Positions 1 to 53,967 of a stretch of DNA of 64,000 nucleotides are shown here, in pieces. The position numbers and the translations under genes were made by a program. Each line of letters opens with the position of its first letter. The stretch's first letter is position 1. Location of the stretch: positions 62,001-126,000 of the forward strand of contig OZ374564.1 of NCBI GenBank assembly GCA_977862235.1, given 5' to 3'. Origin of the DNA: Dudresnaya verticillata (taxonomy: Eukaryota). The notes under the pieces were generated by a model. It ran no database searches, had not been told where the DNA came from, and saw only the letters and a program-made list of their open reading frames with translations.

Positions 1-1093
1 GATTTTCCAAATTACGCTCTGCCGCCGGTCGCCGAAACGAAAGTGCGCAGGTCTGTGTCTTTCGTTTCTCCGCAGCTGCCGTATGGAGCGTGGCGCGAGC
101 ACCATGGCGCTCAAGGCTGCGTCAACACCAACCGCCACCCACCCGCGCCGAACGCCGTCCGTCGTCCGCACCAACATCTGCCACGCTGCTGCTCGTGGAG
201 CTCAGCGGCGCCGCCTGTCGACAGCGCCCGCTAGCGGCGGACAAGCTGCGCGCGAAAGCCGCGCCTCCGGGACGCTCGCTGTGGGAACCACAAGCATGCG
301 CAAGAAGTGTGTGCCGCAGCGTCGGGCACAAGTTGTGCCTGCCTCGCGAGAACGAGATTTGCCGGCGCGTAGTGTATTGCGCGATGGTGGACGGGGAGAT
401 GTGTGTGCATTCAACGCAGTTGGTCCGGTTGGGTACCGTATGAAGTGCTTGCGCGAGCAATTGTTTGGTGATGCCAACAGTGCAGAACCGTCCCTGGCAA
501 TGTCCCACCGTCAAGCGCGGAACGCCAATGGCTGACTGATTCTGCTGTGCTTGTTGTCGCTCAAGGGCTGCTTCCGCACTTATGTACTGTACAACAAGTT
601 TGCCCGTTTGTGCTGATTCGGAGCAGTTCCGACCAATCCCGACAACCCTTTCGACCGCATTTCTTGGCTGCCCTTGCGACTCGGCTGGAGAAGTGTGCAA
701 GCAGATGAAGTCATACAGCTTCCAGTGACCCGCTTTGTTGCGCCCCGCAGGCGAGTCTGTGACTGAGAATACATCTGAGTTGTGTGACCACGAACGGCGG
801 TGTCGACATCACAACCGAATTTCAGAAAAACCGCGGAGAACTCACAGACTCGTACGCACCCAACCCGGGCGCACTACCCTTGGTAGACACTGGCCACGCC
901 ACGAGCCCACAAGCGTTTTCTGCTTCACAAGAACTTTCAAAGTACGAAACAGCAACGGTCTGTTCCCCGTCAACCGCCGCCCAAACTCCGGCTTTTGAGT
1001 CGTTTCCATTATCACCAAGCTCCCCAACTGCCCGATCGAGTACAAGACCAAATTCCGTTGCTTCTTTCTGTTGACTTTTTTTGCCTTCACACG

Positions 1094-4000
1094 ATGGTGG
1101 ACTCTGTGGTTTCTCTCCTCGAGACCAGTATCAAGGTTGTTCAGCACATTCGTAATAGTCTTGAAGCTCGCAAACAAAACGCAACATCCTTCGTGACGAT
1201 AGCCGATGGCATTGAACGTATTCGCTTGGGTTATCAAGACTTTCGCAAGAACCACTACCTCTCCGCCATCCATGACGATGTCAGCAGGCACATCAGCGCA
1301 GAGTTGGAAATGGTTCAGCCCCATTTGGAGGGACTTTCGCAGCAGATAGACAATCGAAGGCCTTTCCGCTCGTTGCTAGGCAGCATCGAAGCTCGTGAGG
1401 CGATCATACAGGTAAAATCCTTTGTGACAGGGCTAGAAAGACACTTGGATGCTTGTCGGCTCATGGTGAAACACTTTCAGATCCATGACTCCCGCCTCAG
1501 TGAAATATATGAACTGTTGCACAAGCATGTCATCAAAGAGGTTCCGAGCTCTTCCTCTGCGGGAGGGGTTACGGTACAAGAAGAGGTGACGGTAATCGAC
1601 GCTACCTCTGCGCGACTTCAAGGAACAGATCCAAGCAGCTCGAGTAGTCCCAGTCAGACCTCGCCCCACTCTCCAGGCCCGACAATGAGTATACAATCTG
1701 AACAGCTTGATAAGGAGGACGAGGACGAGATCCAATTCATATCATCGCTGCCCATGGCGATGAAGTTGATAGCGAAAAGCGATGTCCCGGAAGATGTGAA
1801 ACGGACGCTACAGCAGAAGATAGACGACTTCCAGACTCGGTGGGAGTTGAAGTTTGACGACTTGGTGTTTGAGAAAGACAGAAGGGGGTGGGTCGAGTTG
1901 GGTGAAGGTGGTTTCAGCAGGGTGTACAAAGCGAAGCTCCGCCAAGGTGAAACATTCCTGGAAGTGGCAGTCAAAGAGCTAAAGGTAGAGGAGTCGGAAC
2001 TGGAGAAGTTCAAGCCAAAGTTTTTGCGTGAGATGCACGGCCTGATTCAGTACCGGCATCGTTGTATCTTGGAGGCACATGGGGCCATCTGGGCGAGGAT
2101 CGGTGGGACTGAAGACGGTATCGTGCACAACCCGATGATTGTTCTAGAACGTATGACATGCAGCCTCCACAAAGCGATTCAAAAGCACTGGGCAGCGGTG
2201 GAGGACATGGGTGTGAGAAAGGGTATCGCGCTGGATGTGGCTGCCGCGCTCGCTCATCTGCACGAGAAGAGCGTTGTTCATAGGGACGTGAAGCCTGAAA
2301 ACGTGTTGTTGCGTGTTAGGGACGGTGAGGTTGTGAGGCCTGCCAAGCTGTGCGACTTTGGCGTATCGCGAGAAGTGCAGGTGACAAAGCAGATGGAGAC
2401 GTATACGCTGAGGAGTAGTAGAGGAGCTGCGTCAGGGACGGTTGTTTTCATGCCACCAGAGGTGCTCAAGGACCGAAGAAAGGCGCCGGCGCGTCCGTCG
2501 TGGGATGTGTGGAGCTTTGGACTACTTTTATGTTTCTTGGGGGGTGGGGCGACACCCTTTTCGGCACTGGATTTCATTAACGCCCCGGGTCTAGCAAGAG
2601 AGGATCAGCTTGGAGCGGTCGCACGAGGGTGGGCGGACTCCATTGGGGATGAGGCGATGAGGACGGCTGCGTTGCGTTGTTTACGGTCGAAGTGGAAGGA
2701 GCGTTGCACTATGGCTGATGTGGTGGCGATTATTTCGCAGGGTATACCAGGGGTCGGGAATGATGCTCCTAGTGACGCTGAATCAGCCATGGCAGATGTG
2801 GTGGGGACGATCTCGCAGGATGTACCAGAGCTCAGGGTTGATACTCCGAGTGACGCAGAATTTGCCATGGCGGATGTGGTGGGGATAGTCTCGCGGAATG
2901 TACCAGGGGTCGGGGTTGATGCTCCGAAAGATGTGGAATTTGCCAACGTTCTTCTTGACCCACGATGGATGACCATAGATAGCAGTCCTTTGGACATCCC
3001 TGGGTGGAAGGAGAATGTGAATGAGTTGCGGTGGGCGTGCTTGGCAAATGGGTTGGTTGGTGAAGAAGATTTCGATGCGGGCATGAAGTTGCTGCGGTCA
3101 GCAGCGCGAGAGAGCTGGCCGTTCATTTTTCGAAACCCGAGGGAGCTGATGTTCCAGATGCAGTCGCGATTGGTGGACTCAAGCGATGAGTCATGGCTCG
3201 TACGGCGGTACCTTGAGACGGCTAGCAAGGTTTCCCCCACACCCCGAGTTCGATCATTAACTCGGTGCTGGAACATTCCTGGTGGTCGACAAGAGATGGA
3301 AATCCCATGTGCGGACATTGTAAACAGCTTGGCTGTGACAGGGGATGAAGGAAAAGTTGTGGCAGGCATTGGGAACAAAGTAGTGCTCATGGACTTGGAA
3401 AGCAGTGTTGTCATCCGCGAGTACATCGGCCACGAGAATGCGGTGGGGTGCGTGGCGGTGACGCCAGACGGGCGGCACGTCGTGTCCGGATCGGACGATA
3501 TGACGTTGCGGGTGTGGGAGTTGGGGAGCGGCAAGCCCGTGGGGGAGCCGTTGCCCGGTCACACGTATCGGGTGCAGTGCGTGGCGGTGACGCCAGACGG
3601 GCGGCACGTCGTGTCCGGGTCATGGGACAAGACGTTGCGGGTGTGGGAGTTGGGGAGCGGCAAGCCCGTGGGGGAGCCGTTGCGCGGTCACGAGAATTTT
3701 GTGCAGTGCGTGGCGGTGACGCCAGACGGGCGTCACGTCGTGTCCGGGTCGTTCGACAAGACGTTGCAGGTGTGGGAGTTGGGGAGCGGCAAGCCCGTGG
3801 GGGAGCCGTTGCGCGGTCACACGGATTGGGTGCAGTGCGTGGCGGTGACGCCAGACGGACGGCACGTCGTGTCCGGGTCGCGGGACAAGACGTTGCGGGT
3901 GTGGGAGTTGGGGAGCGGCAAGCCCGTGGGGGAGCCGTTGCCCGGTCACACGGATTGGGTGCGGTGCGTGGCAGTGACGCCAGACGGGCGGCACGTCGTG

Positions 4001-4825
4001 TCCGGGTCGTGGGACAAGACGTTGCGGGTGTGGGAGTTGGGGAGGGGCAAGCCCGTGGGGGAGCCGTTGCGCGGTCACACGCGTTGGGTGTGGTCCGTGG
4101 CGGTGACGCCAGACGGGCGGCACGTCGTGTCCGGGTCGTGGGACAAGACGTTGCGGGTGTGGGAGTTGGGGAGCGGCAAGCCCGTGGGGGAGCCGTTGCG
4201 CGGTCACACAGATTGGGTGCGGTGCGTGGCAGTGACGCCAGACGGGCGGCACGTCGTGTCCGGGTCGCGGGACAAGACGTTGCGGGTGTGGGAGCTGGGG
4301 AGCGGCAAGCCCGTGGGGGAGCCGTTGCGCGGTCACACGCGTTGGGTGCTGTGCGTGGCGGTGACGCCAGACGGGCGGCACGTCGTGTCCGGGTCGTCGG
4401 ACGAAACGTTGCGGGTGTGGGAGTTGGGGAGCGGCAAGCCCGTGGGCGAACCGGAAGCGTTTTCGTCACGTGTTTTGAGTGTTGGATGTGTTGGGGCGAG
4501 TACTGTGAAGGCTCGTGATGAGGATCGGAATGAGCGTTACTTTGAGGTGAGTGGATATGGTCTGCGGGAGATTGATGCGGCTGTTGGAAGAGTTCGTGAG
4601 AGTGAAGTGCTGCGCGGGAGTGGAAGCCATCGGAGCGGGTCTGCAGCGGAGGCTGTCGTACGGGTCTCGGGGCGGTCAGTGCGCCTCGGGCAGGACGGGC
4701 CGATTCTCGCGACCCTTCCGGCAGCTTTGGCCGAGCCTGGGACGTGGGACTACAATGCTGCGGAAGGTCGACTGGTCGTCGGGCTCCGAGACGGACGTGT
4801 GTTGGCGTTGGAGGTGGAGACGTAA
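1094..4825 (+). CDS. Multidomain protein: N-terminal helical bundle (MLKL/HeLo/RPW8-like, tentative), Ser/Thr (TKL-like) protein kinase, Apaf-1-like helical segment, WD40 propeller
   Basis: Uninterrupted ORF; first in-frame ATG at 1094 (MVDSVVSLLE). Kinase motifs GEGGFSRVY, VAVK, HRDVKPEN, DFG, GTVVFMPPE and DVWSFG are all intact. C-terminal GH...W(E) WD40 repeats. Stop TAA at 4823-4825. Confidence 0.92.
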   Translation: MVDSVVSLLETSIKVVQHIRNSLEARKQNATSFVTIADGIERIRLGYQDFRKNHYLSAIHDDVSRHISAELEMVQPHLEGLSQQIDNRRPFRSLLGSIEAREAIIQVKSFVTGLERHLDACRLMVKHFQIHDSRLSEIYELLHKHVIKEVPSSSSAGGVTVQEEVTVIDATSARLQGTDPSSSSSPSQTSPHSPGPTMSIQSEQLDKEDEDEIQFISSLPMAMKLIAKSDVPEDVKRTLQQKIDDFQTRWELKFDDLVFEKDRRGWVELGEGGFSRVYKAKLRQGETFLEVAVKELKVEESELEKFKPKFLREMHGLIQYRHRCILEAHGAIWARIGGTEDGIVHNPMIVLERMTCSLHKAIQKHWAAVEDMGVRKGIALDVAAALAHLHEKSVVHRDVKPENVLLRVRDGEVVRPAKLCDFGVSREVQVTKQMETYTLRSSRGAASGTVVFMPPEVLKDRRKAPARPSWDVWSFGLLLCFLGGGATPFSALDFINAPGLAREDQLGAVARGWADSIGDEAMRTAALRCLRSKWKERCTMADVVAIISQGIPGVGNDAPSDAESAMADVVGTISQDVPELRVDTPSDAEFAMADVVGIVSRNVPGVGVDAPKDVEFANVLLDPRWMTIDSSPLDIPGWKENVNELRWACLANGLVGEEDFDAGMKLLRSAARESWPFIFRNPRELMFQMQSRLVDSSDESWLVRRYLETASKVSPTPRVRSLTRCWNIPGGRQEMEIPCADIVNSLAVTGDEGKVVAGIGNKVVLMDLESSVVIREYIGHENAVGCVAVTPDGRHVVSGSDDMTLRVWELGSGKPVGEPLPGHTYRVQCVAVTPDGRHVVSGSWDKTLRVWELGSGKPVGEPLRGHENFVQCVAVTPDGRHVVSGSFDKTLQVWELGSGKPVGEPLRGHTDWVQCVAVTPDGRHVVSGSRDKTLRVWELGSGKPVGEPLPGHTDWVRCVAVTPDGRHVVSGSWDKTLRVWELGRGKPVGEPLRGHTRWVWSVAVTPDGRHVVSGSWDKTLRVWELGSGKPVGEPLRGHTDWVRCVAVTPDGRHVVSGSRDKTLRVWELGSGKPVGEPLRGHTRWVLCVAVTPDGRHVVSGSSDETLRVWELGSGKPVGEPEAFSSRVLSVGCVGASTVKARDEDRNERYFEVSGYGLREIDAAVGRVRESEVLRGSGSHRSGSAAEAVVRVSGRSVRLGQDGPILATLPAALAEPGTWDYNAAEGRLVVGLRDGRVLALEVET
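2711..2944 (+). repeat. 3 x 78-bp (26-aa) tandem repeat at the kinase C-terminus
   Basis: Units MADVVAIISQGIPGVGNDAPSDAESA, MADVVGTISQDVPELRVDTPSDAEFA and MADVVGIVSRNVPGVGVDAPKDVEFA start at 2711, 2789 and 2867. Confidence 0.9.
3428..4459 (+). repeat. 8 x 129-bp (43-aa) highly homogenised WD40 tandem repeats
   Basis: Consensus GHxxxVxCVAVTPDGRHVVSGSxDKTLRVWELGSGKPVGEPLR with an exact 129-nt period (3428, 3557, ...), near-identical at DNA level. Confidence 0.97.
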
Positions 4826-6706
4826 AGGAAAGCAAAGGCGATGTCGAGTGCGGAGAAAGTGTGTTGCGCCATTGCAGAGAAGAGGAAGAAACTCAGCGAC
4901 GGGGAGCGCGGCGCTCTAAGAAGTGGCAGACGATGCGTTCCGCGTTCTGCGCGCTGGTTGGGCGTGCAGCGCGCGTCTGGACACGTGCGTCGTTTTGTGT
5001 GGGCCGTTGCGCGTCCCTCGTCAGAGCGCACGCGACCGCCCTTCGGCGCCACGCCTCAAGTGGGAACGGTTTAGACATTGTGACGCACAAAGGAGTTGGT
5101 CCACAACACCGCTGCTGTTGCAGGTTGGATCAAAAGACTAGCTCTGTCTGACAACTCTGCACAATGGCTTCGCAGCCGCTTTACTGTCCACATGCTTCCA
5201 CATACTGGAAACCGAGAAGGGCCCAGACGTGTTGCACACAGATGAGCTCCATTGCGTTTGATAGCATATGGAAAGAGCGAGGCAAGCCACAGCAACTAGC
5301 GACGCCATCTCAGACCAAGCTCAGGACTAGCCTTGTTGATCGCATAAGTGAAATCTTGACGCTGAGACGTGCGCCTAATGGGTCGTCACCCAACTCGTCG
5401 GTTATTCGAGTGCAACACAACAAGGGCACACGGACCGAACGTCCGCTACCCGTCTTCCATTTCTCCCTCTTTCCTTGCTGCGCGGCGGCTTCTAGTCGAG
5501 ATTTGCAACTGCGTTCTATATATCGCAACGTCTTCCCCTTAATATTATTTTCCATAACTTTGAACGCCGGCACCCCATCGACTCATTCAGCAGCAGCTAC
5601 AAGAGTCGGCATTCGAGTTTGCGTCGGAACGTCGCGGGGTGAGAAAACGAACAGATGCAATGCATTAGTGTAATAATTCAAGCAGACTCCATTCTAAACC
5701 TCATGATGGTTCAACAATTAAACACGAATGCCCTTTAGTTGGACAGAAATGCAAATTCTACAAAGGTAGTTCCCTGAAACAAAATGCTTGTCGTACTGCC
5801 TGCTCCATTGAAAAAGCCAGCCGTGTGTGCCCAAAAGAATCTGAATCAATTAGCAACAGATAAAACATTACGAGCTGGGAGGGCGGCGTCAGTCGCCACG
5901 ATTGTAACTTGTGTGCAAACAAAGCGAATGTGACAATGCTCCAGAAGCGAACAAATAATCTCCGCTTGGCGAATATTTTCTATATTACTATTGACCCATA
6001 CACGTAGGTTGGCCTCGTTCGTTTAAAATGGAGTCAAAGTCTCAACTTGAGGTGACCACGGAACGCGGAAAAAGAGAGGGTGGGAAGGGAGAAAGGATCA
6101 ACTTGGCTCGGGACTTTTCTCCCACCGAAGTCCAACGGTTAAATTTTGTTCCCTGCGGTGCGTGGAATGCAGTTTCAGGGGACTCACGTTGATTATTCTT
6201 CGACTTTTGACAGTCGTGCGGGAGAGACAACTCGATTGCCTGCAGGTCCCCAGTCCGCCGCATTGGCAGCCACCTATGGGGGACACGAGAAAGTCTGTGA
6301 CGATTTTCTACGCGGTTCGTATCAGTCGGGGAGAAAACGACGCTTTGTAACGCGGCCCGCATAAAGAGGGCCACTCGCGTACGCGGTGGTTGATAAAGGA
6401 GATAGAAAGGGAAAAGCGGAAGGCGAGGTTGGAGGCTAGGTCAGCGCGGGTTGTTGGCAGTTCCCTCGTCTGTGCTGACGCCCGCGGGCTGCCTTTATTA
6501 GGTAAAAAGCAGAGTGTGAGCTGTGCTGCTCAGGTCGTACGACCCACGCTATTTAGTGGACTGCACGATCGCAGCCTCCGCCCTGGATCTGATATGCATT
6601 GACCGAAGGAACGAAGCTATTCGGCAACGCGGATACTTTGTCATTGGATACGACAACTACCACTCTAACACGCCTATTCCGAAAGGATACGACTTTTACG
6701 TGAGGT

Positions 6707-7098
6707 TTGATAATTGGTGGAAAAGGGTCTGTAGCATGCAGATCAGTAGTGAGAGGGAAAGCGTGGTATTACAGTTGAAGTGTCAAAGTAGTTTTGATTG
6801 TGGTAGTAGATGGATACCTCAGAAAGCAGAGGAGTGCTTGTCGAGTCAATACTTATAGACTACAGTCCGCCACACAGAATCTATCGGACATGATAAAGTG
6901 ATGAGTATCGTCATCAACGGTATAGTCGTTCTAGTAACAACTAAAATACAATCGTAACAGTAAACTAGCAACGACTACAGTGCAAAAGATATTCGTGCCA
7001 TCTAAAACGATCACAAGTAGTTCTTCAAGCCATGAACGATTCCAAATACAGAACGCATTTCCAAGCTGTTCAAGCTTGTAGCAACTCAAAGTTAGACA
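6707..7098 (-). repeat. Copia 3' LTR (392 bp)
   Basis: Direct repeat of 11616-12005 with about 5 substitutions and a 2-bp indel. On the minus strand it is preceded by the PPT. Confidence 0.95.
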
Positions 7099-7119: not shown

Positions 7120-10100
7120 CTATCCAAGGAAAGCATCAGATTCACGAGACTCGTGCATCGCGAGATCACAGGGTAGCTTGCCATCAAACATGAGTAGTTG
7201 TAAACTGTCTGATACAGCAGAATCAATCTTAGCTAGAGGGTCTGCGAAGTTAAGAGTCCCTGGAATCCATGTCACCTGATTGAGCGCATGTGTTTCGAAA
7301 TTGTACCTTAGTAGTGCAACATCAGCTGCAATTGACTTATCATCAGGCACTCTGCAGGTCGACATTGATGAAAATAAATCCTTAGAATCAACTGCTAGTC
7401 CCAAATGCACTGAACCTCCCAGAAGCAATTTGTATGTAGCTGTGATGACTTTTCCAGCATCAAGTGCCTCCCCTGCAGCCATAACTTCTGCAGAAGCACT
7501 AGATTTAGCTGGACGTCTTGATAAGTGGGATTGCCAGCTAAGTACATGAAACACAGACCCTTTTTTCAATGGGCCAATGCAAAGGCCAGCGACATATCCA
7601 AGTTGACCAAACTCGTTAGGTCTGGCAGCATCAGAAAACGTAAAAACACTTACATCATATGACCCCTTTTCTGGAGTTCTGAACTTGGTAGTAGACCCAA
7701 TTCTCTGAAGTTTTCTTACTAAACCTGCCTGTCGCTGCAAATCATGTATAGTTGTGGACGACCGTCGCTGTTGCATAAAACTTGTGTACAGAGATGCAAA
7801 GGGAGAGACATTTTGACCCAAGAATCCAAAAGACCCATTCATAGATGAGAAGGAGAAATCCTCAATTGCGTTCAATGAATCATCAACCTGCTTTCGTCTT
7901 GTTCTTGTTAACCTGTACGGGGTGAGAGCTTCAACTTTGTCTTCAGCAGATATATGAATAACTCCGTCTTCATCTTGAGTAATAGTTAGCCCAAAGAATA
8001 CGAACTCTCCTGGTAAATGAACGATTGTTCCGAGCTTATATCGTTTCGATAATGCATCTATGAACGAAGACTGAGCATTTTCTTCGCCAACAATCAGAAG
8101 GTCATCGACAACTTTGGCCACTAGTAGTACTAAAATACCATCCCTGTACATATAAAACAACTGGGGTATGTGAACGACAGATGAAAGTCCCAGGTCAAGA
8201 AGTGTGGAGTCAGAGTGGTATTGCCATTTTGTATTAGCATTAACCAACCCATAACTTGCGGTCAGTAGGAGCCAGTAGAACAATCGATTGACACACTCGC
8301 GTGATGGTATGACATACACATCTCTTTGCGCTCTTCCAGACTGTAGAAATGCGCTCTTAATGTCAATTTTGCTGATAAACCAACCGAATATAACTGCAAT
8401 GGACAATAATATTCTAAATCCCAACGGTGGGCATGCAGCAGAATCAGTCTTGAGTGATTTTCGCTCTCTGTCCTTATTGCCATGTGGTGCAATCCTAGCC
8501 TTGCACCTTTTCGAACCATCATCTAGACGCTTGACCTTGTACAAGACGTGACTTGAAATTATATTCGCTCCATGCGGAACCTTAGAGATGTGAATGCATT
8601 CACAGGTTTGCAAGAAGCTTTCTTCTTTACTTCGGTATGCATTTTGTACTACAGAAGGCGGTAGACCTTGCGCATCCTTCAATAAGAACTCCTTGGTCCC
8701 AAAGCGTTCATAATAGCTGTCCAACAGAATTTTGTCTGAAGGTGTTAGCATCTGTCCTGGTTGCAGAACAATATCAGCTGCATTAGCATTTCGAGCTTGT
8801 GAGCGTGTAACCATTTGGCGTCCATCGTCATTAGCATCACCAAGGGAATTTAGTTCACGTGTGCCAACAGGACCTGGAGGTGGGTGGTATGTAAGTGCAT
8901 CTGCACCAAACTGTCCATTGGGAGACACTGAGTCAGGGCTAGGGTGCACACCTTCACCTATATCCATGTAATTTCCATCTTGTACATTATTTATAGTTTT
9001 CTCATCAGCATCTACATCACCATTATTTGTTACATCAGTAACATTGGTCCATCCATTGTCTTCTAAATCATCATTATTTCCAATACAATTTCCATCATCA
9101 TCGTTTCCATCATCATCATTTCCATCTTCTACAATCACATCAATAGCTGAATATACTGCTGAGTTACATTGATCGATAGCAGCTTGAACCATGTGGGAAA
9201 AATCAGGCTGACTGGACAATGCGAACCGAACATCCTCGACTGCTGCTTGAACGACACGACCAGCCTTGCCAGGTACAGTAACAGTTTGAGATTTTTTGTC
9301 AAAGGAAAGAACAGGTCTTGGTAGAGTCCATTTGCCTCTTTTCTCATTGGGTTGCTTGATATAAAGTTCAACAAGAGTACCGACATCAATTGCTGCATCT
9401 TGTGAAGACTTAGAGCGTAATATTGCCGTAAGCTTGCGGCGTGCAGATAAATCATCGTGTGCTTTGATTATCTCATCTGGTATAGTAATTGGAGAGTCAG
9501 TGGGAATGATAGGACGAGTAAACCCTTTCGCTAGCTCATATGCGGAAGCTATATCATTACCATAGAGGTCATTTGATATCCTCATTGCCTGAATCACGAG
9601 TAGTCGTGCATTGGCATTTGGGTTGGCGTGACGCAATCGCATAAATATCGACTTAATAACTCTGTGCTTGGATTCCAATGCATTTTTTCTTGGACGGCGT
9701 GGGGGAGCTGGACGAAACATAGTTCCAATAGAATTCAAATGGTTTTTGAACTCAGCCACATTGAAGGCAGGGTCTCCCTGTACAGCAGCTGGATTCCAGA
9801 ACTGTGATATCCAATTTGATTCAAGCACATTAATAGCGTTGGTCATTCCCTTAGTTTGCACGCAATCCCCAGCAGAGTACCTTGATACAGAATCCATAAT
9901 GTGAAAAACTGATTCCTGCTCAGGAAAAAAATGATCAATATATACGAGCTGGTTAAATCCCCTAGAGAAATTATTCAGGGAAACAGTACGGGATTTGACT
10001 GGAAGATCCGTCTCGTGGCATCTTCTGCAGGACTCAAGTGTCTTGGATAAATATGATGCACACTCATCTGTCCAAAGGTTGTTTCTCTGAAGCAGTGTCT

Positions 10101-10173
10101 TGATGTCGAAGTAGTTTGAATGTCCACATACATGTTTGTGGACTTTATCAATAATGGATTCAAATCCCTCCAT
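7120..10173 (-). CDS. Copia pol: integrase, reverse transcriptase, RNase H (out of frame with gag-PR)
   Basis: HKHVCGH...CRRC zinc finger; IDH / GDP / LES DDE triad; KARIAPHG, IDIKSAFLQ, YGL and KVVDDLL RT motifs; FSDAA...AE...VDS...ADPL RNase H motifs. Confidence 0.92.
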   Translation of the reverse strand: MEGFESIIDKVHKHVCGHSNYFDIKTLLQRNNLWTDECASYLSKTLESCRRCHETDLPVKSRTVSLNNFSRGFNQLVYIDHFFPEQESVFHIMDSVSRYSAGDCVQTKGMTNAINVLESNWISQFWNPAAVQGDPAFNVAEFKNHLNSIGTMFRPAPPRRPRKNALESKHRVIKSIFMRLRHANPNANARLLVIQAMRISNDLYGNDIASAYELAKGFTRPIIPTDSPITIPDEIIKAHDDLSARRKLTAILRSKSSQDAAIDVGTLVELYIKQPNEKRGKWTLPRPVLSFDKKSQTVTVPGKAGRVVQAAVEDVRFALSSQPDFSHMVQAAIDQCNSAVYSAIDVIVEDGNDDDGNDDDGNCIGNNDDLEDNGWTNVTDVTNNGDVDADEKTINNVQDGNYMDIGEGVHPSPDSVSPNGQFGADALTYHPPPGPVGTRELNSLGDANDDGRQMVTRSQARNANAADIVLQPGQMLTPSDKILLDSYYERFGTKEFLLKDAQGLPPSVVQNAYRSKEESFLQTCECIHISKVPHGANIISSHVLYKVKRLDDGSKRCKARIAPHGNKDRERKSLKTDSAACPPLGFRILLSIAVIFGWFISKIDIKSAFLQSGRAQRDVYVIPSRECVNRLFYWLLLTASYGLVNANTKWQYHSDSTLLDLGLSSVVHIPQLFYMYRDGILVLLVAKVVDDLLIVGEENAQSSFIDALSKRYKLGTIVHLPGEFVFFGLTITQDEDGVIHISAEDKVEALTPYRLTRTRRKQVDDSLNAIEDFSFSSMNGSFGFLGQNVSPFASLYTSFMQQRRSSTTIHDLQRQAGLVRKLQRIGSTTKFRTPEKGSYDVSVFTFSDAARPNEFGQLGYVAGLCIGPLKKGSVFHVLSWQSHLSRRPAKSSASAEVMAAGEALDAGKVITATYKLLLGGSVHLGLAVDSKDLFSSMSTCRVPDDKSIAADVALLRYNFETHALNQVTWIPGTLNFADPLAKIDSAVSDSLQLLMFDGKLPCDLAMHESRESDAFLG

Positions 10174-10184
10174 GACAGTGAGTG

Positions 10185-11612
10185 CTAATTTTCTGATGCT
10201 TCAGTAGCAGCACGCAAACTGGAGCAAACAACATTATCCTTTGCCGCCGTAAACCTTGAAAACGGCAAATAGTCCAGGAATTCATGCTTCAATAGTGACA
10301 CAGTGTCATATTGTCCGTTGCTTAACTCAGTAGGCAATTGGAGAAAACGGCCATCAATGTGTTGAATGTTGCAGTGGTTGGTAACATTTTTTCCAACAAT
10401 CCATTGTGAGGACCCTTCAATAACAACATGTCGTACCTCTAAGACAGAACCAGAGTCACTTAACAACCGTAGAACAACGGAACCAATAATTTTTCTAGTG
10501 CTGCTCGCATGAGAGCCTTGACCGTACTGCCAATAAGGTCTATCGGCAATTGATTCAGGAATCTGTTCGAGGCATTCATCCCACGAACTTAGGACGAAGG
10601 GAGCAATTTTCCTTAGTTCAACAAGCCCAATGCCAGAGTAGGGTGCACCATCGTCAAGTAATGGGCCTGGAGCACGAAGTGGAGAGGCAGTAGCACTATG
10701 AATATTGACATTGTTGAATTTCAAGGTCTTTGTCTTACCCTTGTTATCACTTTCATTGTTCCCATTCGTGCCTTTCTGCGACACAAAACATTCAGCATCA
10801 CCGGCCCAATGGCCTTTCTCCTTGCACGCACGGCATCTGGAGTTCTTCTTGAAAGCAGCAAGTTCTTCAGCTGTCATATCCTTGAATGCCTTGCGTTTGA
10901 CAGGGCGAGTTCTAAATGGGCGATGGGTAGCACTATTACCCGACAATGGGGTAGTTTGTCGCAGAGAAAGCTCAGCAGGCTTGTCACATGCCCGCAAGAT
11001 CGAAGAGACTTCTTCATATTTGATCCCATTTAACATTCCATGGATCTTGTTTTGACCGGGTCTCTGACGAATTTCAGAAGGTCTGGGGGCAGCAGCAGCT
11101 AGAATAGATACGTGCTGTTGAGATTCCACATTTGCATTTGCAAGCAACAGAAAGGAGGTAATAGATTCAGGCAGTCTTGCATCACCAGCTGCAGCATTGA
11201 ATCTACTCAGCTTGGCATCAAACCGAGTCTCAAAGTTCTTAAATCCTTCAGAATCACCTCTCGTAGTCCCTAGCACAGACATAAATTTCTGGAATACGTC
11301 ATTGACCACTGCAAGAGGGTCGTCTTTGTGAAGAGCACGTGCTATTTCATTCGCACCATCATCCGACAGCAGCGTGTCTTCTGATATCTTCTTCACAATG
11401 TCTTGAGCACGCCCAAAAAGTTGAGCTTGCAACACAATCCCTTGAAGTCCTGGAGCAATCTTATTGCTGTTGGATTCCGGTAGCTTGTCATGGAACGATT
11501 TCCACAGCCGTACAGCACGTACAAACTCTTCTTGTGGACCACGACCGTCCGTCCAAGGAGCATCCTTGAGGGACCAAGAGAACTTGGGGCGAGATGGCAG
11601 ATCTGGGCCCAT
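10185..11612 (-). CDS. Copia gag and aspartic protease
   Basis: CCHC-type knuckle CRACKEKGHWAGDAEC, protease-like LLDDGAPYSG and WIVGKN. The ATG lies inside the PBS. Confidence 0.88.
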   Translation of the reverse strand: MGPDLPSRPKFSWSLKDAPWTDGRGPQEEFVRAVRLWKSFHDKLPESNSNKIAPGLQGIVLQAQLFGRAQDIVKKISEDTLLSDDGANEIARALHKDDPLAVVNDVFQKFMSVLGTTRGDSEGFKNFETRFDAKLSRFNAAAGDARLPESITSFLLLANANVESQQHVSILAAAAPRPSEIRQRPGQNKIHGMLNGIKYEEVSSILRACDKPAELSLRQTTPLSGNSATHRPFRTRPVKRKAFKDMTAEELAAFKKNSRCRACKEKGHWAGDAECFVSQKGTNGNNESDNKGKTKTLKFNNVNIHSATASPLRAPGPLLDDGAPYSGIGLVELRKIAPFVLSSWDECLEQIPESIADRPYWQYGQGSHASSTRKIIGSVVLRLLSDSGSVLEVRHVVIEGSSQWIVGKNVTNHCNIQHIDGRFLQLPTELSNGQYDTVSLLKHEFLDYLPFSRFTAAKDNVVCSSLRAATEASEN

Positions 11613-14649: not shown

Positions 14650-15156
14650 ATTTACAGTGCGGTAGTAGTATTTCTACGCTAGGTATTTTTGCGCGATATT
14701 TTAGTGAGCTCGCGGTGCGCGCGCATGCCAAGTGTCAAGCGCACGGCGCCACACACGCGCGCGCATCTCCCGCGGGGGATACTTAGTACACGGGGTGAAC
14801 CCCCCTCACAGTAAAGCGCCAAGCAGGCCTAGGAACTCGAGGATACCCCCACCTTCGCACCCGGTGACGACATCGTACGCGACTTGGGCTTACGTACCCC
14901 GTTCTACTGCCTGGCTTCAACGGCACTCACCGGCGTAATCGCCTTCATCGTTCTACGTGCACTACAGCACTCCTACGTGGGCCGGGGGTTTACAGTCGAC
15001 CCCTCCCACGTTTCAACCATCCGGGGCACACCCCGTGTCCCTAGCTCTACCACCCAACCGGCGTCGGCCTCACCGCCGTCGCCAGCTACCAACCCGTGGG
15101 AGGACCACTCGGACTCTGGTTCTGGGGTTGCGCCCTTGTTCGGGCGTTGCACCACA
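14650..15156 (+). mobile_element. Gypsy-type LTR remnant (5' boundary uncertain)
   Basis: Ends in TGCACCACA like other LTRs here and contains the shared CAGTAAA...CAAGC box near 14810. No 5' terminus or TSD found. Confidence 0.55.
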
Positions 15157-17046
15157 AGCCGCTTGCTGGAAGCGTCTGAGATGCATTCGACACGGCTTGA
15201 AGAATCTGTGCGAGTGCTCTTAGGATCGCAACATGGCACCAGGGATGCTGCTGAAGCCGAAGATAACTGTCTCGTAGAAATGCTCACAGCTTTGGACAAA
15301 CGGCTATTTCGAAAGCCAGGGCATTCCACAGCGCAGCAAGTCTCTGGAAGAATCAACGAAGTGAATGTTCTCAATTCAATTCCTTACATTCATTCGGAGG
15401 GAGCTGCATGTCGCATTAGGGCTGGGTATTGTGATCATGAGAGTGTTGATGCGATCGTTGAACGTGGGCTGATTTGTAACAATGAAAATTCCAGCCTACT
15501 GTCCAGTGTTGACGGCATTCCAGTTGTGGACATGAGGTCGGGGATGCTTGACGGAGTGGAAGGGATCACAAGATATGAGATTGCTGTAGTGGAGTGCAAG
15601 ACGCATCATGATCAGCACTTTGCAGGTGCTGAAATGATTGCCGCCGACCTCGGCACCTCAAGATATGCCTTCATTGTTCTGGACCAGACAGGCCTCGAAT
15701 GGGCAAGCAGAGGGGGAATCCTGTCCAGTCGTTATGCCCGAGGACGAAATGATTTGGACAAGTTATTGCCGAACAGTGAACACAGAAGCCAGGTATTATA
15801 CCATATGGCGGTGTACAATGTACGCCGTGCGTTCTACGCCGTAGCTGGTCCGTGGAGTATTTCGTACGTTGTTGATATCAAGGATGAGAGTACACGCCAA
15901 ATCAAGAACTTATTGCGAATCGTCGTGGAGAAAATGCTTGCTGTCGGACTTAATCGTCTTTTCAGCTGCACTGTGGTTATCCCTGATGCAGTGCAGTCAC
16001 AATCATACCTTCAAAACACGGAGGCTCGCCAGCTTCACTTGGGAATTTCCCAAAGCCTTAAGGAGCTTGCAATGGGTTCAAAACATCCACTGCCAGAAGC
16101 CAAGTACATTTGCCCAAAAGCCGTACGCATGTGGAATGAGTTCGGTAAGACAGGCATGGACACATTCAGCAGGCTGGTGGTGGAAATGTTCCCTGCCAAA
16201 GTTGGAACACAAGATTCGATTTCAAAAGTCGTTCATCCACAGATAGCACTATGCACAACTAATGCGCTCTATGCGTGGCGCCTGGTCAAGGCAATATCAG
16301 ATATCACGCACGGGGATACGCTTTCGATGCGCATGAAGCTGGAGGCATCGAGCTTTGCATTGCTGAGAAATAAAATGTCCAGATCTTCGTCCATGCGTGC
16401 CTTTTTACGGTATGCATTGGAAGACAACGATCTCCCCACTCCGAAAGCGTTTCCGGGCTCCAAAGCCGTGCGGAGAACTACATTCCCACTCGCTCTGGCG
16501 GGTACCCGACAGGGCCCTGAGACACCTAATCACAGGATCAAAATGCCGAATGGGAGAAACTTCTTCTCCGTGTTTAATTCATCAAGAGGAAAGAAGGTGC
16601 AACTGAATGGGGAGCATCAAGCATGCATACCAGAAACGTACTCCGGCAAGAAGCTGAATGGGAAGACATTTTTTGTTTCTGGACCGAAAGGGAGTCCAAA
16701 CGAACCACATACATATCGGGCACGGGTGAAAACTGTATGCGTGCAGTGCTACAGCCCGTTTCTCTGCACACAGCAAAGGTATATCAGAGATGAATACGGT
16801 ACAGTCCGGTTATCACGTCTTTCGTGCTTTGAATACTTTCACTCAGCACATATTCTGGAACGACGCGTATCTGTTCGCCCGCCCATGCCGTCAGCCGTTC
16901 GTCACAGTTCCGAGTCTGATAGTGAAAGCAATGCGGAAGAACATGATCCGCACGGCCTCGAAAATGTACGTCAACCCGACTTCGGGGATGGAGAAATTGA
17001 GGGAGAGCACAAAAACGATAATTGTAGGAAGAGAGGTGTCAAGTGA
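15157..17046 (+). CDS. N-terminally truncated piggyBac-like transposase with a PD-(D/E)xK (YqaJ-like) nuclease domain and a C-terminal Cys-rich domain
   Basis: YqaJ-like motifs GRINE, GL...SSVDG, VVECKT and SQVLYHM. PiggyBac-like PKAVRMWNEFGKTGMDTFSR (cf. YN..MGGVD..D) and NALYAW. C-terminal CVQC..FLC...SCFEYFH. The first ~90 codons of the track ORF (14884-15156) are LTR sequence. Confidence 0.68.
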   Translation, partial: SRLLEASEMHSTRLEESVRVLLGSQHGTRDAAEAEDNCLVEMLTALDKRLFRKPGHSTAQQVSGRINEVNVLNSIPYIHSEGAACRIRAGYCDHESVDAIVERGLICNNENSSLLSSVDGIPVVDMRSGMLDGVEGITRYEIAVVECKTHHDQHFAGAEMIAADLGTSRYAFIVLDQTGLEWASRGGILSSRYARGRNDLDKLLPNSEHRSQVLYHMAVYNVRRAFYAVAGPWSISYVVDIKDESTRQIKNLLRIVVEKMLAVGLNRLFSCTVVIPDAVQSQSYLQNTEARQLHLGISQSLKELAMGSKHPLPEAKYICPKAVRMWNEFGKTGMDTFSRLVVEMFPAKVGTQDSISKVVHPQIALCTTNALYAWRLVKAISDITHGDTLSMRMKLEASSFALLRNKMSRSSSMRAFLRYALEDNDLPTPKAFPGSKAVRRTTFPLALAGTRQGPETPNHRIKMPNGRNFFSVFNSSRGKKVQLNGEHQACIPETYSGKKLNGKTFFVSGPKGSPNEPHTYRARVKTVCVQCYSPFLCTQQRYIRDEYGTVRLSRLSCFEYFHSAHILERRVSVRPPMPSAVRHSSESDSESNAEEHDPHGLENVRQPDFGDGEIEGEHKNDNCRKRGVK

Positions 17047-21739: not shown

Positions 21740-24711
21740 TCACTGTTGTTTCGCGGTCCATGGCTGCATGTTGTTTGGGTCTGGGATCGTTCGAATTATA
21801 TCTATTGCTAGGGCTACTCGTTTCATTCTGGCTTCTGACAGACATGGTTCCTTCAGCCCCTGCAGTGCGTCTAGGAATCTTTGAAGACCTATGTTGCGGA
21901 GGTACCGATAGTGGATGGGAAAGTATCCAATGTGCCATAGGACAGCAATGCGGCGTTGTTCGGCTGTTTTTAGCTTAGGTGCCGGTGGCAGGCTCCTCGT
22001 CGACGTCGGGATGTGCCGGTGCCTGGTCATTGGTTGGTTTCGCCACCAGTCCTTGATCATCGTGGTGGTAACCTTCACGGGGTTGAACGGGTCTGGCACT
22101 ACTTCCGTGAATTGTTTTATCAGGGTTAGGCTACGGAGCGTTCTTGCAGCTTGTATCGCTGCATGACCTTGCCCAGATCGCAATTTGTTCATCCTAATTG
22201 CGAAGTTATTGGCGATACGTCGTTGGTGTAGTTCCGGAGGCACGATACGCAGAAGGGTGCGGAGGGCTGGCAGCTTTGCCAACGGCAGTGGCCTGTGGAA
22301 CACCGCACGAAAAAACGTAATATCGAAACGGTCTCGAGCCTGTCGAGTGGACAAAGACTCCGGTATTAGGAAAGATGCGAAGTCGAACGAGCTTTGAAAG
22401 AGGGAGAGGTAGATCGTGCGAGCAAATCGGGGCTGTACGCCGGAATAGAGCACCTTATGCTGCAGTAGCGTCGTCAGTCGCTTGAGGGCCACAGTGTACC
22501 TCCCGATACTGCAATCTGGCACAATCCCGTTCGCTCTGATTCTTATGCCAAGATATCCACTGCTTGTCGTTGCCATGATGATCCCCCTGAGAAGGGGAGT
22601 TGGGGAATTAGGCGTTTTTGGGAGGTTGTGAGTACCAATTCGCTCTTGCCGGGCCGTGTTGCCCAGACCATTCGAAATTGTCCGGCGTACTCTTCACATA
22701 TTTTAAGTGCTTTCATTATCGCCCATAGAGCGGTCATGATCAAAAGGACATCGTCGGCGTATAGTCGCACTACGAAATCCGTTGCGTGGCTTCCCAGTGC
22801 CCGCTGTAGTCGGATGGCTAGGAGGTTTATGTAGATGTTGAACAAGGTTGGGCTTGCCGGTCCCCCTTGTGTGACTCCCCTGTTAATTTTGCCCGTTGTG
22901 TGCGAATCGTCATGTGCTGTCTGCACTGTTAGGGCTTGCAGAAAGAGCGACACCATGTTTGTGGTCGTTGTGTCCAGGGCTGCAGCACATAGCTCCAAAA
23001 GCTTTTCTCTGCACACCGTATCGTACGCGGGGCGTAAATCGAGGACTGCCATCCATTTGTTCCCTTTTGATAGAGCTCCGCAGGTAGTTGCAAGTGCCAT
23101 TTCTACGCCCACCTGGGGCTGGAAGCCGAATTGCATCTCATACGGGGTGAATTGACGTCTTATATGCTTATCCACGGCCTTCTCAATTACCTTTCTTGCA
23201 CATGAGAGGAGGGATATCGGACGGTAGCTCTGCGGTTGTTCTGAGTCTCCCTTTTTGTAAACCGGTATGAGCACTCCTACGTTCCACTGCTCCGGAGTTG
23301 CACCGAGTTGGCCGAATGCCACCCAAAAGATGTATAGGAACTCACCTATTTCCTTGTCGCAAATCTTAAGCATTTCGTACCGGATCTCGTCAATTCCGGG
23401 AGCCGTCCCGTTGGGAAGGTGTACCATGGCGTCTTGGATGTCCTTCATGGAGGAAAGGGGTGGGATGAACTTGCGGGCGGGGACAGGGGTTGGGGCATGC
23501 GCGCTAGCCATGTGCTTAATGAATTCGGACGGGTCGAGCGGTGCTCCCCGCGTGGCGTTGTTCGCCAGTTGCGCAGCACGTTGCAGGCGCGTCTTCATCC
23601 ACTGTTGAGCTTCCGCCGGTGATGTCTCCAGTACTGCGGCCAGCTCTTGTTTCTTCCGCGCTCTTTTCTTTCTGCATACTGTCCTTTTGATTTCTCGATC
23701 TAACCTGCGGTGCGTTGCCCAGCATTCTGGGCTTTGCGTTGCTCGTGCGCTTTTGAATGCCCGATCCCTTTGTTTTGCTAAGCGCTGAAGCCGGTGGTCC
23801 CAGAGGGGCCGGAAATTGGCGGGGCGAGGTCGCTGCAACTGACGCCATGGTCTGGTCATTATCGTACAGAACTCGTTGTATGGGTTTTATAACTCCCTTT
23901 GGGATTGGGCTTCTCTGTCTCTGCCTATGAGCACGGGGAGTTTTGAGCGGTACTGAGCGTGTGCTGCTTCCTTGTGCGTCGGTCTAGAGAGGAGTCGGCT
24001 TCAGGTATGCATCTGTGTTGTGCTCTTCAACAGGCGGCCAGTGATTGTTGCCATCGTTGCGATGTGGTCGCTGGCCGCGTTCCACAAGCCGGGGAGCGCC
24101 CTCGGTTTTGTAACATGCAGGCCCTTGCTTATGAAAAGGTCAATGGTGCTAGATCCTCTTGAGTTTGCGAATGTCGGTTCGGGAGGGGCATGGATTGCTA
24201 ACTTAAACTTCCGGGCCCACTGCGCGACTGCTCTTCCTTGAGGGTTGTTATGCGAGCACCATTGCTTGGAGCGCGCGTTGAGATCGCCAACTAGCAGCAG
24301 CGGGTACCTAGCGCGTGCATGAATTTCTTGCAGGAATGTCTGCAGCAGGTCAGGCTTTGTTTTCGGGCGGATGTACACAGCCAACAGGTCGCACACTCCC
24401 GGAATGCGTGTCCAGAGGGCCGATACACCACCTGCAGCTGGGTTGCTGGTGTCACTGGTCGCGATCCTTCTGGTCACCTTAATCTTGTAGCCTGGTTTCA
24501 GCAGGACGGCGACACCCCCGGACGGTCGGCCGAACTCGGTCTGTGAGTCTGTTAATTGTTCGGATGTCCCAGTGGATGGAATCTGGCGTCCTGGCCGTAC
24601 CCAGGTCTCCGTAAGCACGCATATGTCTGGCTGGGAATGGGTGAGGAGCAGGTTTAGTTCGTCTGCCTTTTGGTCCACTCCGGCCACGTTCCAATTGACA
24701 ATCTTAAGCAT
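21740..24711 (-). pseudogene. LINE ORF2: AP endonuclease and reverse transcriptase, split into three ORF pieces
   Basis: APE motifs WNVAG, LTETW, GDLNA, STIDL and SDH. RT motifs APGIDEI, YRPISLL, QFGF, GVTQG...SPTLFN and YADD. Confidence 0.92.
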
Positions 24712-26258
24712 TACTGTGACATGCTCTCTGCAATGAGGGGGAACTGCTCTTTGGCTGATTGTAGTTGGGCGTTATACCAAACTCGTGCGGGTGGGTATGG
24801 GCAGCCTGTCGCGCATCTCGCCAGACGGGACAGGGCACCTTTCACGCAGATATCGATCCTTTCCTTGTCTGTGATCGGGATGTTCGCTTTGTCCAGGAAA
24901 CATAGCGGGTCTGATTGCTTTGTAACGGAAAATCCCATGTCTGTCAGGAGTGCTTTGGTGAAGTCGTATACTGCCTCCTCCGCCAGTAGCTCCATACCCT
25001 CTCTGCCAAAGAACGAGATTCCGCGCGTTGCAGCTGGGAGATTGAAGGAGTTTCGGAGCTGATGTGAGAACTCGCCAATTGGGCCGTGGAGGACTTTGGT
25101 GACATCGATTGGCCTCAGCGGGGTCTGGGCAGGTGGATGAACAAATGGCCTTGGGATCGGGGATGGGCGTACAAAATTCCGCATCGCCTCGACGTTCTGT
25201 TGCACTAGCGTATTGAAGTCTTTAGGGAGGTTGGCTGCCATTTCGGTTGGCAGGTGTCGTTTGACAATTTCGGCGTACGGGCGATTGTTGGGTGGGCCTG
25301 GCGGGTGGCGTCTGTTGGAGGGAGAGCTGTGTGGGCGGTGGGCGTCTGGGCGTGGGGTGTGGGTGTTCGCAGCTTGTTTCTTCAGCACGTCCATTTCCAA
25401 TTTCAAGGCCTCATGCTGCTTGCAGAGGGTGTTTAGCTTTTCGGAGACATTGCCTGCTTCACTCAGTTTTGCCGAAGTGTCGTCCGATGTCGCTCGAATC
25501 TCTGCCATTTGTGCATTGAGCTGGTCAGCGCTTTCTACGGCTTGGTTGGCGGTTGCTTCTGCTCTTTGTGCAATTGTTTTGGTCTCCTCGAGAGTCGTCA
25601 TGGCTTCCTTCGCCGTGGCTTCCTGTTTCTCCGCTGAGGATTTGGCGCACGACATAGCAGCTTCAGTTGTGGCCTCAACCTGAAGCATCCGGGCGGGTTG
25701 TTTGTTGTAGAAGTCTTTTTTTTCCTCTTGGATCGCACGTATCTTTGGGTTGAAGACGTTTCGCATTTCCGTTAAGTCGTCCTTCAGCGAGGTGTTAACG
25801 GCTTCCAGCGACTCCATCTTTGTCTCCAGCGTGTGCAGCTTCTCATCGTTCTTCGTTTCAAGGCAGTCCAACTTGGCCGACAGGGCGGCGAGATGGGAAG
25901 AGATTGCCTTTAATTCCAAGCCCAGAGCCTCGTCTCGCTCGCGGATGGTGGTCTGCGGCGTGTTATCGGCCATTCCCTGAGATGCGGGGGCCCTTTGGGC
26001 ACGAGCGAGTGCATAGTGAGCTTCCGCCTGGCGCAGCAGCGCCATGAATGGCTTGCTGTATGTGCGGGAGCCGCATTGGCGGCACTTTGCGGCCGGCGTC
26101 AACTCCGATCCGACATATTCAAGCGTCCCGAAGCTCGGGACCACCTTTGTGTTTTCGACGCATTTAGGGCATATGGCGTGGGCTTTGGCATTTTCAAAAC
26201 GCGCGTTGATACTGTCGTCGCGTGCGGGCGTCGGCGATGTGCTGGGTGCAGTGGGCAT
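24711..26258 (-). CDS. LINE ORF1 (N-terminal CxxC...CxxC zinc-ribbon-like motif, long coiled coil)
   Basis: ATG at 26258 (MPTAP). CPKC...CRQC and a heptad-rich region. The stop overlaps the ORF2 start (TAATG). Confidence 0.8.
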   Translation of the reverse strand: MPTAPSTSPTPARDDSINARFENAKAHAICPKCVENTKVVPSFGTLEYVGSELTPAAKCRQCGSRTYSKPFMALLRQAEAHYALARAQRAPASQGMADNTPQTTIRERDEALGLELKAISSHLAALSAKLDCLETKNDEKLHTLETKMESLEAVNTSLKDDLTEMRNVFNPKIRAIQEEKKDFYNKQPARMLQVEATTEAAMSCAKSSAEKQEATAKEAMTTLEETKTIAQRAEATANQAVESADQLNAQMAEIRATSDDTSAKLSEAGNVSEKLNTLCKQHEALKLEMDVLKKQAANTHTPRPDAHRPHSSPSNRRHPPGPPNNRPYAEIVKRHLPTEMAANLPKDFNTLVQQNVEAMRNFVRPSPIPRPFVHPPAQTPLRPIDVTKVLHGPIGEFSHQLRNSFNLPAATRGISFFGREGMELLAEEAVYDFTKALLTDMGFSVTKQSDPLCFLDKANIPITDKERIDICVKGALSRLARCATGCPYPPARVWYNAQLQSAKEQFPLIAESMSQ

Positions 26259-27056
26259 CGTAGCTTGAAGCGGATCGCACCTGATGCGTGCGCTGCGGTG
26301 GAGGTTTCGCTTCGAGCGTGACGGAGCGCGATATTTGCGCGGTGTCGTCCCGGCGCAGGCGCGCGCGGCGACACTTCCGCGGAGCCGCACTCGAGAGCGC
26401 CGCGCGAAGCGCAAGGCACTGCGCGGCACGGACGAGACAAACAAGGATTTGCAAACAAGCGAAGCGAAGAGAAGCGAATGGGATTGCGGCGCACACGCGT
26501 GTACATAGTATATGAGAGCTAGGGGCGCGCCCTCATTCAGTAAACAAGCCAAGCTCGGGCTCTACGACATACACCTCCCTACCCTTGACCGACATCTTCG
26601 TCGTCAGGAGGGACTCCAGTGCGTGCGTACCCCTTCTTCATCATACAGAACCCTGTTTTCCCCTTTTTCCTTTGCTTTTCCGCAATTTTAGGGTTCCTCC
26701 CTTTTTCTTTCGTCTCGTGGCGCTTTACAGTCGCGCTACGGGGCTACCCCCCACGCTCTACCACACCATCCCCTACTACCGCTACCCGCGGGTCCCGAAC
26801 GCCCGAGGTGTGTCCTCTGTTGTTGTTTTCAGCAGTGGATTTGCACCACACCGGGCGCTAGTCGCTTACCGGAAACCCTCGGAGGTTGTGCCAGACGACT
26901 GGTTAAGCAATACTACGTGAGCACGAATACACGTCAACGCGGGAGACGGTTCGTACTCGAATGATTCGTAACGGCCTCGGTGCCAACGAACGGCCGTCTC
27001 ACGTATGGTGGCGGTTACGAAGTGCGCCAGCGATGCATACGGAGGCGTATACCACA

Positions 27057-30167: not shown

Positions 30168-30305
30168 TCTCCCCCCCGTTAAGCGGCGAGTACCCGCACG
30201 AGCCCACACGTGGTACGTTCACCCTGCGCAGGTCGGCGCTGCTCCTTACCATCGCGCCCGCGGGGGTCCGCTTGTCATCGGCGCTCTCGAAACGTACGCG
30301 CCGCT

Positions 30306-53458: not shown

Positions 53459-53967
53459 GACGTCAACGACGAGAATATGTTAGCGCCAACGGCGATGCCT
53501 GTTCAAACTTCAAAGGCGACTCGTGTTCTGCGCCACTGGCGAAAGCTTCGAGAAGCGTGCGTCGAAGACGATTACTGTTGTAACGCCTCAGGCGAGGAAA
53601 AGAAACCCACGTCAACGACGTTCAGCTGCTGCGCCACTGGCGATGCCAAAGGCAAACGACGTCGATGACGATTAAGTTGCGACGCCCCAGGCGAGGGATA
53701 TACGATAGACGTCAACGACGGAGAACGTTATGCGCCACGGGCGGTGATGTCGGGGCCGCGTCAACGCAGTCGCACAGACACAAGCACGCAACAAGAGCGA
53801 AGTTCTTTCGGCACAGCCGAGGTCGCAACGCGCCCGCGGGCGCACCAACACAATACGCGAAGGCGCGGGGACTCGTTCGCAAGGCGCGGAAGTTGGCAGG
53901 AACGCAACGGGAGGGCGCACGGCAGCAGGTTGAGGGTCGGGCGTGTTCGCGTTTTGGAGGGGGGTCG

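Follow-up and report, generated by a model that had tools for sequence, protein, structure and literature searches.

Positions 1094 to 4825 of the 64,000-nucleotide stretch of Dudresnaya verticillata DNA analysed here (assembly GCA_977862235.1, contig OZ374564.1, positions 62,001 to 126,000; the window) form a single stop-free frame on the forward strand, running from the ATG at 1094 to the stop at 4825. The frame encodes a protein of 1243 amino acids in which a helical bundle is followed by a kinase, a helical linker and eight WD40 repeats. With belief and doubt evenly balanced, the protein is read here as a red-algal receptor that detects non-self inside the cell with one chain: the WD40 propeller would be the sensor, the kinase the switch and the bundle the cell-death output.

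The architecture given in the preliminary description, a helical N-terminus, an intact kinase, a helical linker and WD40 repeats with no P-loop or NB-ARC/NACHT domain, was borne out by motif scanning and Pfam. The P-loop pattern [AG]xxxxGK[ST] does not occur in the 1243-residue protein, GxxxxGK[ST] does not occur in any of the six frames of window positions 1-7000, and neither NB-ARC nor NACHT is among the best 25 of the 48 Pfam families listed for the protein. With regard to the hallmarks of NLR/STAND proteins, the C-terminal superstructure-forming repeats are present in the form of the eight WD40 repeats, and the HD2 domain between winged helix and repeats is partly present, as it matches 11 P-loop WD40 proteins but with its first helices missing; the central P-loop NTPase is absent, and the kinase and a spacer occupy that region. 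Beyond the features described earlier, the repeats have hypervariable top-face positions, a 78-nucleotide unit is triplicated where kinase and linker meet, and the C-terminal tail is common to relatives that have no nucleotide-binding oligomerisation domain (NOD).

Variation in the WD40 array

At the DNA level the eight repeats have 85-97% identity; they differ at 9 of 41 amino acid columns, with the variation concentrated at positions 3, 4, 5, 7, 23 and 25; these 6 of 41 codons, which were picked after the data had been seen, hold 16 of the 29 variable nucleotide sites. In the HET-E and HET-D proteins of Podospora, codons 7, 9, 25 and 27 are described as being under diversifying selection and as lying on the top face of the propeller (PMC1805685 and PMC2873952, each in part). 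Judging by their spacing and by the conserved residues around them, these codons correspond to repeat positions 5, 7, 23 and 25, and all four, which unlike the six were not chosen from the data, are among the five of 41 columns with at least three residues (p 5e-5). The proportion of nonsynonymous differences (pN) is 0.43 at the four top-face positions and 0.035 at the other 37, and in the six inner repeats pN is 0.29 against a synonymous proportion (pS) of 0.077. Seven different four-residue top-face combinations are found among the eight repeats, and the non-variable positions display purifying selection, with pN/pS of about 0.10.

Podospora proteins of the HNWD type (HET-E, HET-D and HET-R) likewise have near-identical repeats and two variable top-face pairs with the same spacing, although their switch is a NACHT domain and their effector a HET domain, neither of which is present here. 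According to the part of PMC4986451 drawn on, such proteins are recognised by internal repeat conservation above 85% across at least 100 amino acids; the amino acid self-identity of the present array is 0.94 in the best 80-residue window, and all four positions of the two top-face pairs are diversified. The earlier claim of non-self recognition gains support from this HET-E-type variability pattern, and the protein is probably a sensor of non-self.

Some properties of the array count against this view. Over the whole repeat pN (0.078) is lower than pS (0.108), pairwise counts among eight related repeats are non-independent, and the closest NOD-less sensor relatives, along with P0184, a distant protein of the searched collection, are without conserved repeats (self-identity 0.17-0.29), so that rapid diversification is a peculiarity of the present gene. 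The GC content at third codon positions (GC3) is 0.90 in the array (3428-4453) as opposed to 0.50-0.62 in the rest of the gene, which suggests recent homogenisation or import; no paralogue was found elsewhere in the window. The GC3 difference is what would be expected under gene conversion, and bacteria have kinase-WD40 fusions of the PkwA type, in which a kinase precedes conserved WD40 repeats as it does here. The protein could accordingly be a non-immune scaffold kinase of development or stress signalling whose repeats were homogenised by neutral conversion, but this is improbable, as neutral conversion leaves the concentration of variable sites in six codons unexplained and both linker and bundle appear to be NLR-derived parts. 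Furthermore, the PkwA-type kinases fall outside the family clade described below, and none scores against the bundle profile.

The bundle, the kinase and a proposed mode of action

AlphaFold2 run on an 18-sequence alignment models residues 1-151 as four long amphipathic helices (2-25, 31-52, 57-86 and 98-149), with a predicted local distance difference test score (pLDDT) of 88 for the N-terminus, and the modelled fourth helix extends beyond the bundle in a manner reminiscent of the MLKL brace; AlphaFold without an alignment gave a pLDDT of 37 on residues 1-782 and was unusable. That the N-terminus models as a four-helix bundle had been set beforehand as one of the two points on which the preliminary description would stand or fall. 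When the bundle was compared with 48,161 chains by VIA-align, the best natural match was potato Rx-CC (Z 11.7, root-mean-square deviation (rmsd) 2.7, 107 of 107 residues aligned), with others to NRG1 CC-R (Z 9.6), MLA13 (Z 9.3) and MLKL (Z 8.0, rmsd 3.1, 93 aligned), the last having 22% identity, the highest among the matches listed. The language-model (Atlas) neighbours of the N-terminus are fungal and oomycete N-terminal domains at a similarity of 0.88-0.93, and the families among them include PigL_N (28% of members), SesA (26%) and MLKL_N (22%), which are placed together in an MLKL-like superfamily in the part of a preprint consulted (bioRxiv 10.1101/2022.03.16.484565). From the model and these neighbours, the N-terminus likely belongs to the MLKL/HeLo-like/RPW8 bundle superfamily.

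In the structural check proposed for the bundle, the likeness to Rx-CC, NRG1 CC-R, MLA13 and MLKL was obtained, and Foldseek returned nothing at E<=0.001. This null result is one of several points that speak against a cell-death bundle: the top fold match is a designed protein (Z 11.9); values of Z 8-12 can be reached by unrelated helical bundles, hence the match of the modelled fold is taken as non-specific; and Pfam MLKL_N matches one of 13 family members (P0005, E 0.22) and not the present protein. A search of PDB sequences with the N-terminus gave no link to MLKL, and a predicted complex of four bundle copies scored 0.29 against a mark of 0.32, which is not evidence either way.

The kinase is matched by Pfam Pkinase over residues 268-543 (E 7e-36) and has its landmarks in place: the G-loop at 270, VAVK at 291 (K294), the alphaC Glu313, HRDVKPEN at 396, DFG at 421 and PPE at 454. 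Unlike the kinase of animal MLKL it looks catalytically intact, and the dead pseudokinase by which MLKL proper is defined is not seen here, VAVK, alphaC Glu, HRD, DFG and PPE all being preserved. No close relative was found among solved structures, and a scan of metagenome contigs with the kinase profile (1/64 of the collection) returned generic kinases only, at 79 loci, which were not used.

Relatives were gathered by a kinase search followed by a five-sequence profile, and have the N-terminal domain as well as the kinase in common with the present protein. In the kinase tree, 16 of 33 kinases form a single clade (support 99/96), and the domains following the kinase in the family differ: Sel1 repeats in P0002, P0003 and P0128 and in the partial P0127 and P0130, Hsp70 in P0005, the linker and WD40 repeats in the present protein and P0184, and no recognised domain in P0006 and P0122-P0125. 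As judged from sequence, the bundle-kinase half is the common part of a family whose tails are exchangeable (WD40, Sel1, Hsp70 or none). The Hsp70 domain of P0005 ends at profile position 493 of 599, and either an integrated decoy or a gene-calling chimera is possible. P0012 and P0129, which also fall in the kinase clade, begin with another kind of N-terminal domain and end in a beta-rich region for which Pfam gives no convincing match.

A profile hidden Markov model (HMM) of ten family N-termini, from which the present protein was left out, was run over 185 proteins and finds it at E 2.4e-12; its score of 47 bits compares with 14 for the best shuffle (475 of 500 shuffles scored). The next four matches outside the training set are N-termini of NB-ARC-WD40 proteins, at E 4e-4 to 2e-3. 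Among ten such N-termini, four score 18-22 bits, one 11.9 and five below 7, and reversed sequences reach at most 9.6 bits. As the HMM scores NB-ARC-WD40 N-termini above these reversed controls, there is a weak indication that the same bundle heads kinase as well as NB-ARC proteins.

This weak detection bears on an account in which the protein is a non-self receptor kinase whose output is the phosphorylation of other proteins, with the bundle serving just for oligomerisation or as an adaptor and without damage to any membrane. The kinase is intact, whereas MLKL has a pseudokinase, and an active kinase permits signalling without any pore, which itself tells against a lytic output; the fold matches also take in the non-lytic bundles of CBL TKB, HIP1R and talin (Z 9-11). 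In plant kinase-NLRs, moreover, kinase domains are reported to trigger a response alone in an HRD-dependent manner (PMC11218826, in part). Against this, the bundle is weakly detected on NB-ARC-WD40 proteins that have no N-terminal enzyme, a position from which CC, HeLo-like and MLKL-like bundles exert their effector function, and the account, although it merits serious attention, is considered the unlikelier one. By analogy with such bundles, the bundle may be a membrane-damaging effector, a proposal held at slightly less than even, while it is fairly likely that the kinase is the switch.

In the one-chain receptor with a cell-death output, the variable top face of the propeller would be the binding site for a foreign or altered protein, and the truncated HD2 would keep the propeller against the kinase. 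Ligand binding would cluster chains, allowing the RD kinase to trans-autophosphorylate its Ser/Thr-rich activation loop and so to replace the missing NB-ARC ATPase as the switch; phosphorylation would then free the bundle, which could oligomerise via its long fourth helix and insert helix 1 into the membrane. The dynamic steps of clustering, autophosphorylation and bundle release are modelled on the biology of MLKL and of CC NLRs (PMC12881547, in part).

MLKL, plant MLKL-like proteins and fungal HELL-kinase proteins share with the present protein an N-terminal four-helix bundle with a long helix and a following kinase fold. The present protein differs from MLKL, for which RIPK3 acts as a separate switching kinase, in its intact kinase motifs, in lacking a Pfam MLKL_N match, and in having behind the kinase a sensor of its own, composed of an HD2 remnant and variable WD40 repeats. 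The fungal layout of HELL with a kinase or pseudokinase is noted in the part of PMC12881547 drawn on. Plant kinase-NLRs (Pkn-NLR, wheat Tsn1) also have a kinase within an intracellular immune receptor (PMC11218826, in part), but they keep NB-ARC and LRRs with the kinase N-terminal; the present protein has its kinase in the middle and no NB-ARC.

The linker and a probable origin by fusion

An index-free search with residues 615-774 found 48 proteins. In 11 of them a P-loop lies upstream of the matching helical segment; eight are NOD-less and start 14-132 residues before the linker; one (P0184) has a kinase; and the remainder are fragments or matches to the first blade only. In P0185, Pfam recognises NB-ARC (28-174), an Apaf-1 winged helix (220-272) and APAF1_C (344-402, E 0.005), and because the linker aligns to residues 379-473 of this protein, overlapping and following APAF1_C, it appears to be the later part of HD2. 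NB-ARC proteins have a helix before the linker that is missing in the present protein, in P0184 and in all six NOD-less proteins that were inspected. The linker motifs quoted in the preliminary description lie within residues 615-735, and the similarity to STAND helical domains that it had proposed is upheld in the form of homology to the pre-WD40 segment of the 11 NB-ARC-WD40 proteins.

The connection to Apaf-1 itself is less direct, which detracts from the identification. The linker alone matches no Pfam family at E<=1, APAF1_C included, a PDB sequence search with it gives no link to Apaf-1 HD2, and Atlas offers APAF1_C merely as a lead (0.83), so that the APAF1_C link is an indirect one drawn through P0185 (E 0.005) and this lead. 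The PDB sequence search with P0185 gave WD40 matches only and no link to Apaf-1 HD2, a word-indexed search with residues 530-790 gave nothing, and a metagenome contig scan with the linker yielded no relative among 145 pattern matches. A profile comparison (A3 against A4) had a probability of 93%, but the present protein is in both alignments and the value is not counted as independent.

The red-algal NB-ARC-WD40 NLRs, which have TIR or helical N-termini, share with the present protein the pre-WD40 segment, the WD40 sensor and, weakly, the bundle; the present protein has no NB-ARC, winged helix or first HD2 helices, and a kinase stands in their position. In Chondrus, 58 of 61 NB genes are NB-WD40, an expanded repertoire (PMC7145615, in part), and NB-ARC-WD40 and TIR-like NB-ARC-WD40 proteins are seen in the Asparagopsis annotation (PMC12115072, in part); motif searches in part of the supplement of the latter found no member of the bundle-kinase family. 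Relatives of this NB-ARC-WD40 kind, together with a large gene that has no apparent intron and lies among retroelements, suggest a red-algal source.

In a tree of 29 linkers, the present protein and P0184 group with the NOD-less proteins (SH-like approximate likelihood ratio test 90), apart from the NB-ARC ones. By the approximately unbiased (AU) test, forcing the present protein to join the 14 NB-ARC-type linkers (11 full proteins, 3 fragments) is rejected (p 0.011), and a clade of the present protein and P0184 is not rejected (p 0.73); these values come from a quick LG+G4 tree of 131 columns with long branches, and the tested group was named after the tree had been seen. The C-terminal tail matches seven of the eight NOD-less proteins and P0184, but one NB-ARC protein only. 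Since the linker tree and the tail both ally the protein with NOD-less proteins, fusion of two pre-existing modules appears likelier than an in-place swap of a NOD; most likely, as far as these comparisons indicate, a bundle-kinase gene was fused to an existing NOD-less HD2-WD40 gene and the repeats were then homogenised. The earlier proposal that a NOD was replaced by a bundle and kinase therefore describes the net architecture well, and the in-place swap it implied is the less likely route.

The eight NOD-less proteins (P0138-P0142, P0147, P0148 and P0150) have a truncated HD2, degenerate WD40 repeats and a common C-terminal tail, and four of them bear an additional N-terminal region of about 100 amino acids. 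Their role may be that of independent sensors or of decoys within the NLR system. The view that they are merely N-terminally cut NLRs was rejected, as six of the eight were inspected and have no pre-linker helix, with wrong gene starts being possible.

The junction of kinase and linker is marked by the triplicated 78-nucleotide unit (Tandem Repeats Finder (TRF): period 78, 3.0 copies, 79% matches, at 2711-2945). This triplication, the absence of the exact protein from the searched protein collection and the retroelement nature of most other long frames in the window (Copia-, LINE- and Gypsy-type) would fit a chimera of recent date without function, or an error of assembly in a region rich in transposons. 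This explanation is very unlikely, given that the frame is unbroken over 1243 codons and contains every kinase motif and that the non-variable repeat positions are under the purifying selection described above. In addition, P0184 is only 27% identical and collinear over residues 181-1242, with the same domain order and linker boundary; it appears to be a second, distant protein with the full bundle-kinase-linker-WD40 layout, which is therefore not unique to this assembly. One fusion shared by the two proteins and two separate fusions are left undistinguished by the kinase tree.

Bundle-kinase proteins, kinase-NLRs and NLRs with variable WD40 repeats are known kinds already. In the openly available full-text literature searched, neither a NOD-less bundle-kinase-HD2-WD40 protein nor a modular bundle-kinase family in red algae was found to be described. 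Little beyond lists of WD40, Sel1 and NB-ARC genes is available on the immune receptors and cell-death executors of red seaweeds; the protein offers a concrete candidate executor module, and it displays how NLR sensor halves recombine with a kinase in place of an ATPase. If the bundle kills, necroptosis-like signalling would be extended to a further eukaryotic lineage, and the protein would be a natural one-chain sensor-kinase-pore design. A broader scheme, which must be regarded as speculative and rather doubtful, is that red algae possess a modular family of immune proteins whose constant killing cassette, an MLKL/CC-like bundle together with an active kinase, can be combined with one or another sensor (HD2 with hypervariable WD40 repeats, Sel1 or an Hsp70 decoy); here the cassette would have taken over an NLR sensor half, one chain doing the work of receptor, RIPK3 and MLKL without an ATPase switch.

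Features of the gene and the window

Coordinates in the window of the parts of the gene and of the surrounding retroelements
Feature	Positions	Strand	Basis or remark
Whole coding frame	1094..4825	+	No apparent intron; Met1 aligned with starts of family members
Four-helix bundle, residues 1-149 (predicted)	1094..1540	+	AlphaFold2 model; VIA-align; family HMM without the present protein
Ser/Pro-rich spacer, residues ~150-206, then helical segment, residues ~207-248	1541..1837	+	Sequence; segment alignable across kinase family
Protein kinase, RD type, Ser/Thr-type catalytic loop, all catalytic motifs intact	1838..2734	+	Pfam; motifs; clade 99/96
78-nucleotide (26-residue) unit, three copies, last kinase helix and linker start	2711..2945	+	TRF; translation
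Truncated Apaf-1-type helical domain (HD2/APAF1_C-like), residues 615-735 (putative)	2936..3298	+	Homology to NB-ARC relatives
First WD40-like blade, divergent, residues 736-778	3299..3427	+	Pfam propeller matches from residues 739-746
Eight near-identical WD40 repeats, 43 residues each	3428..4453	+	129-nucleotide tandem units
Degenerate C-terminal tail	4454..4825	+	Last ~68 residues common to NOD-less linker-WD40 proteins and P0184
Copia-type (RVT_2), LINE-type (endonuclease and reverse transcriptase) and Gypsy-type (reverse transcriptase, RNase H, integrase) elements	7120-11612, 21740-26561, 34046-38683; 56106-59956	- (first three); + (last)	

Retroelements occupy most of the window. Between them lies a 737-codon open frame at 14833-17046 on the forward strand with no Pfam match at E<=1. 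Two further long frames, at 30183-31943 (forward) and 51155-53479 (reverse), have no Pfam matches, are mutually similar by eye and adjoin Gypsy-type elements, of which they are possibly an extra open reading frame.

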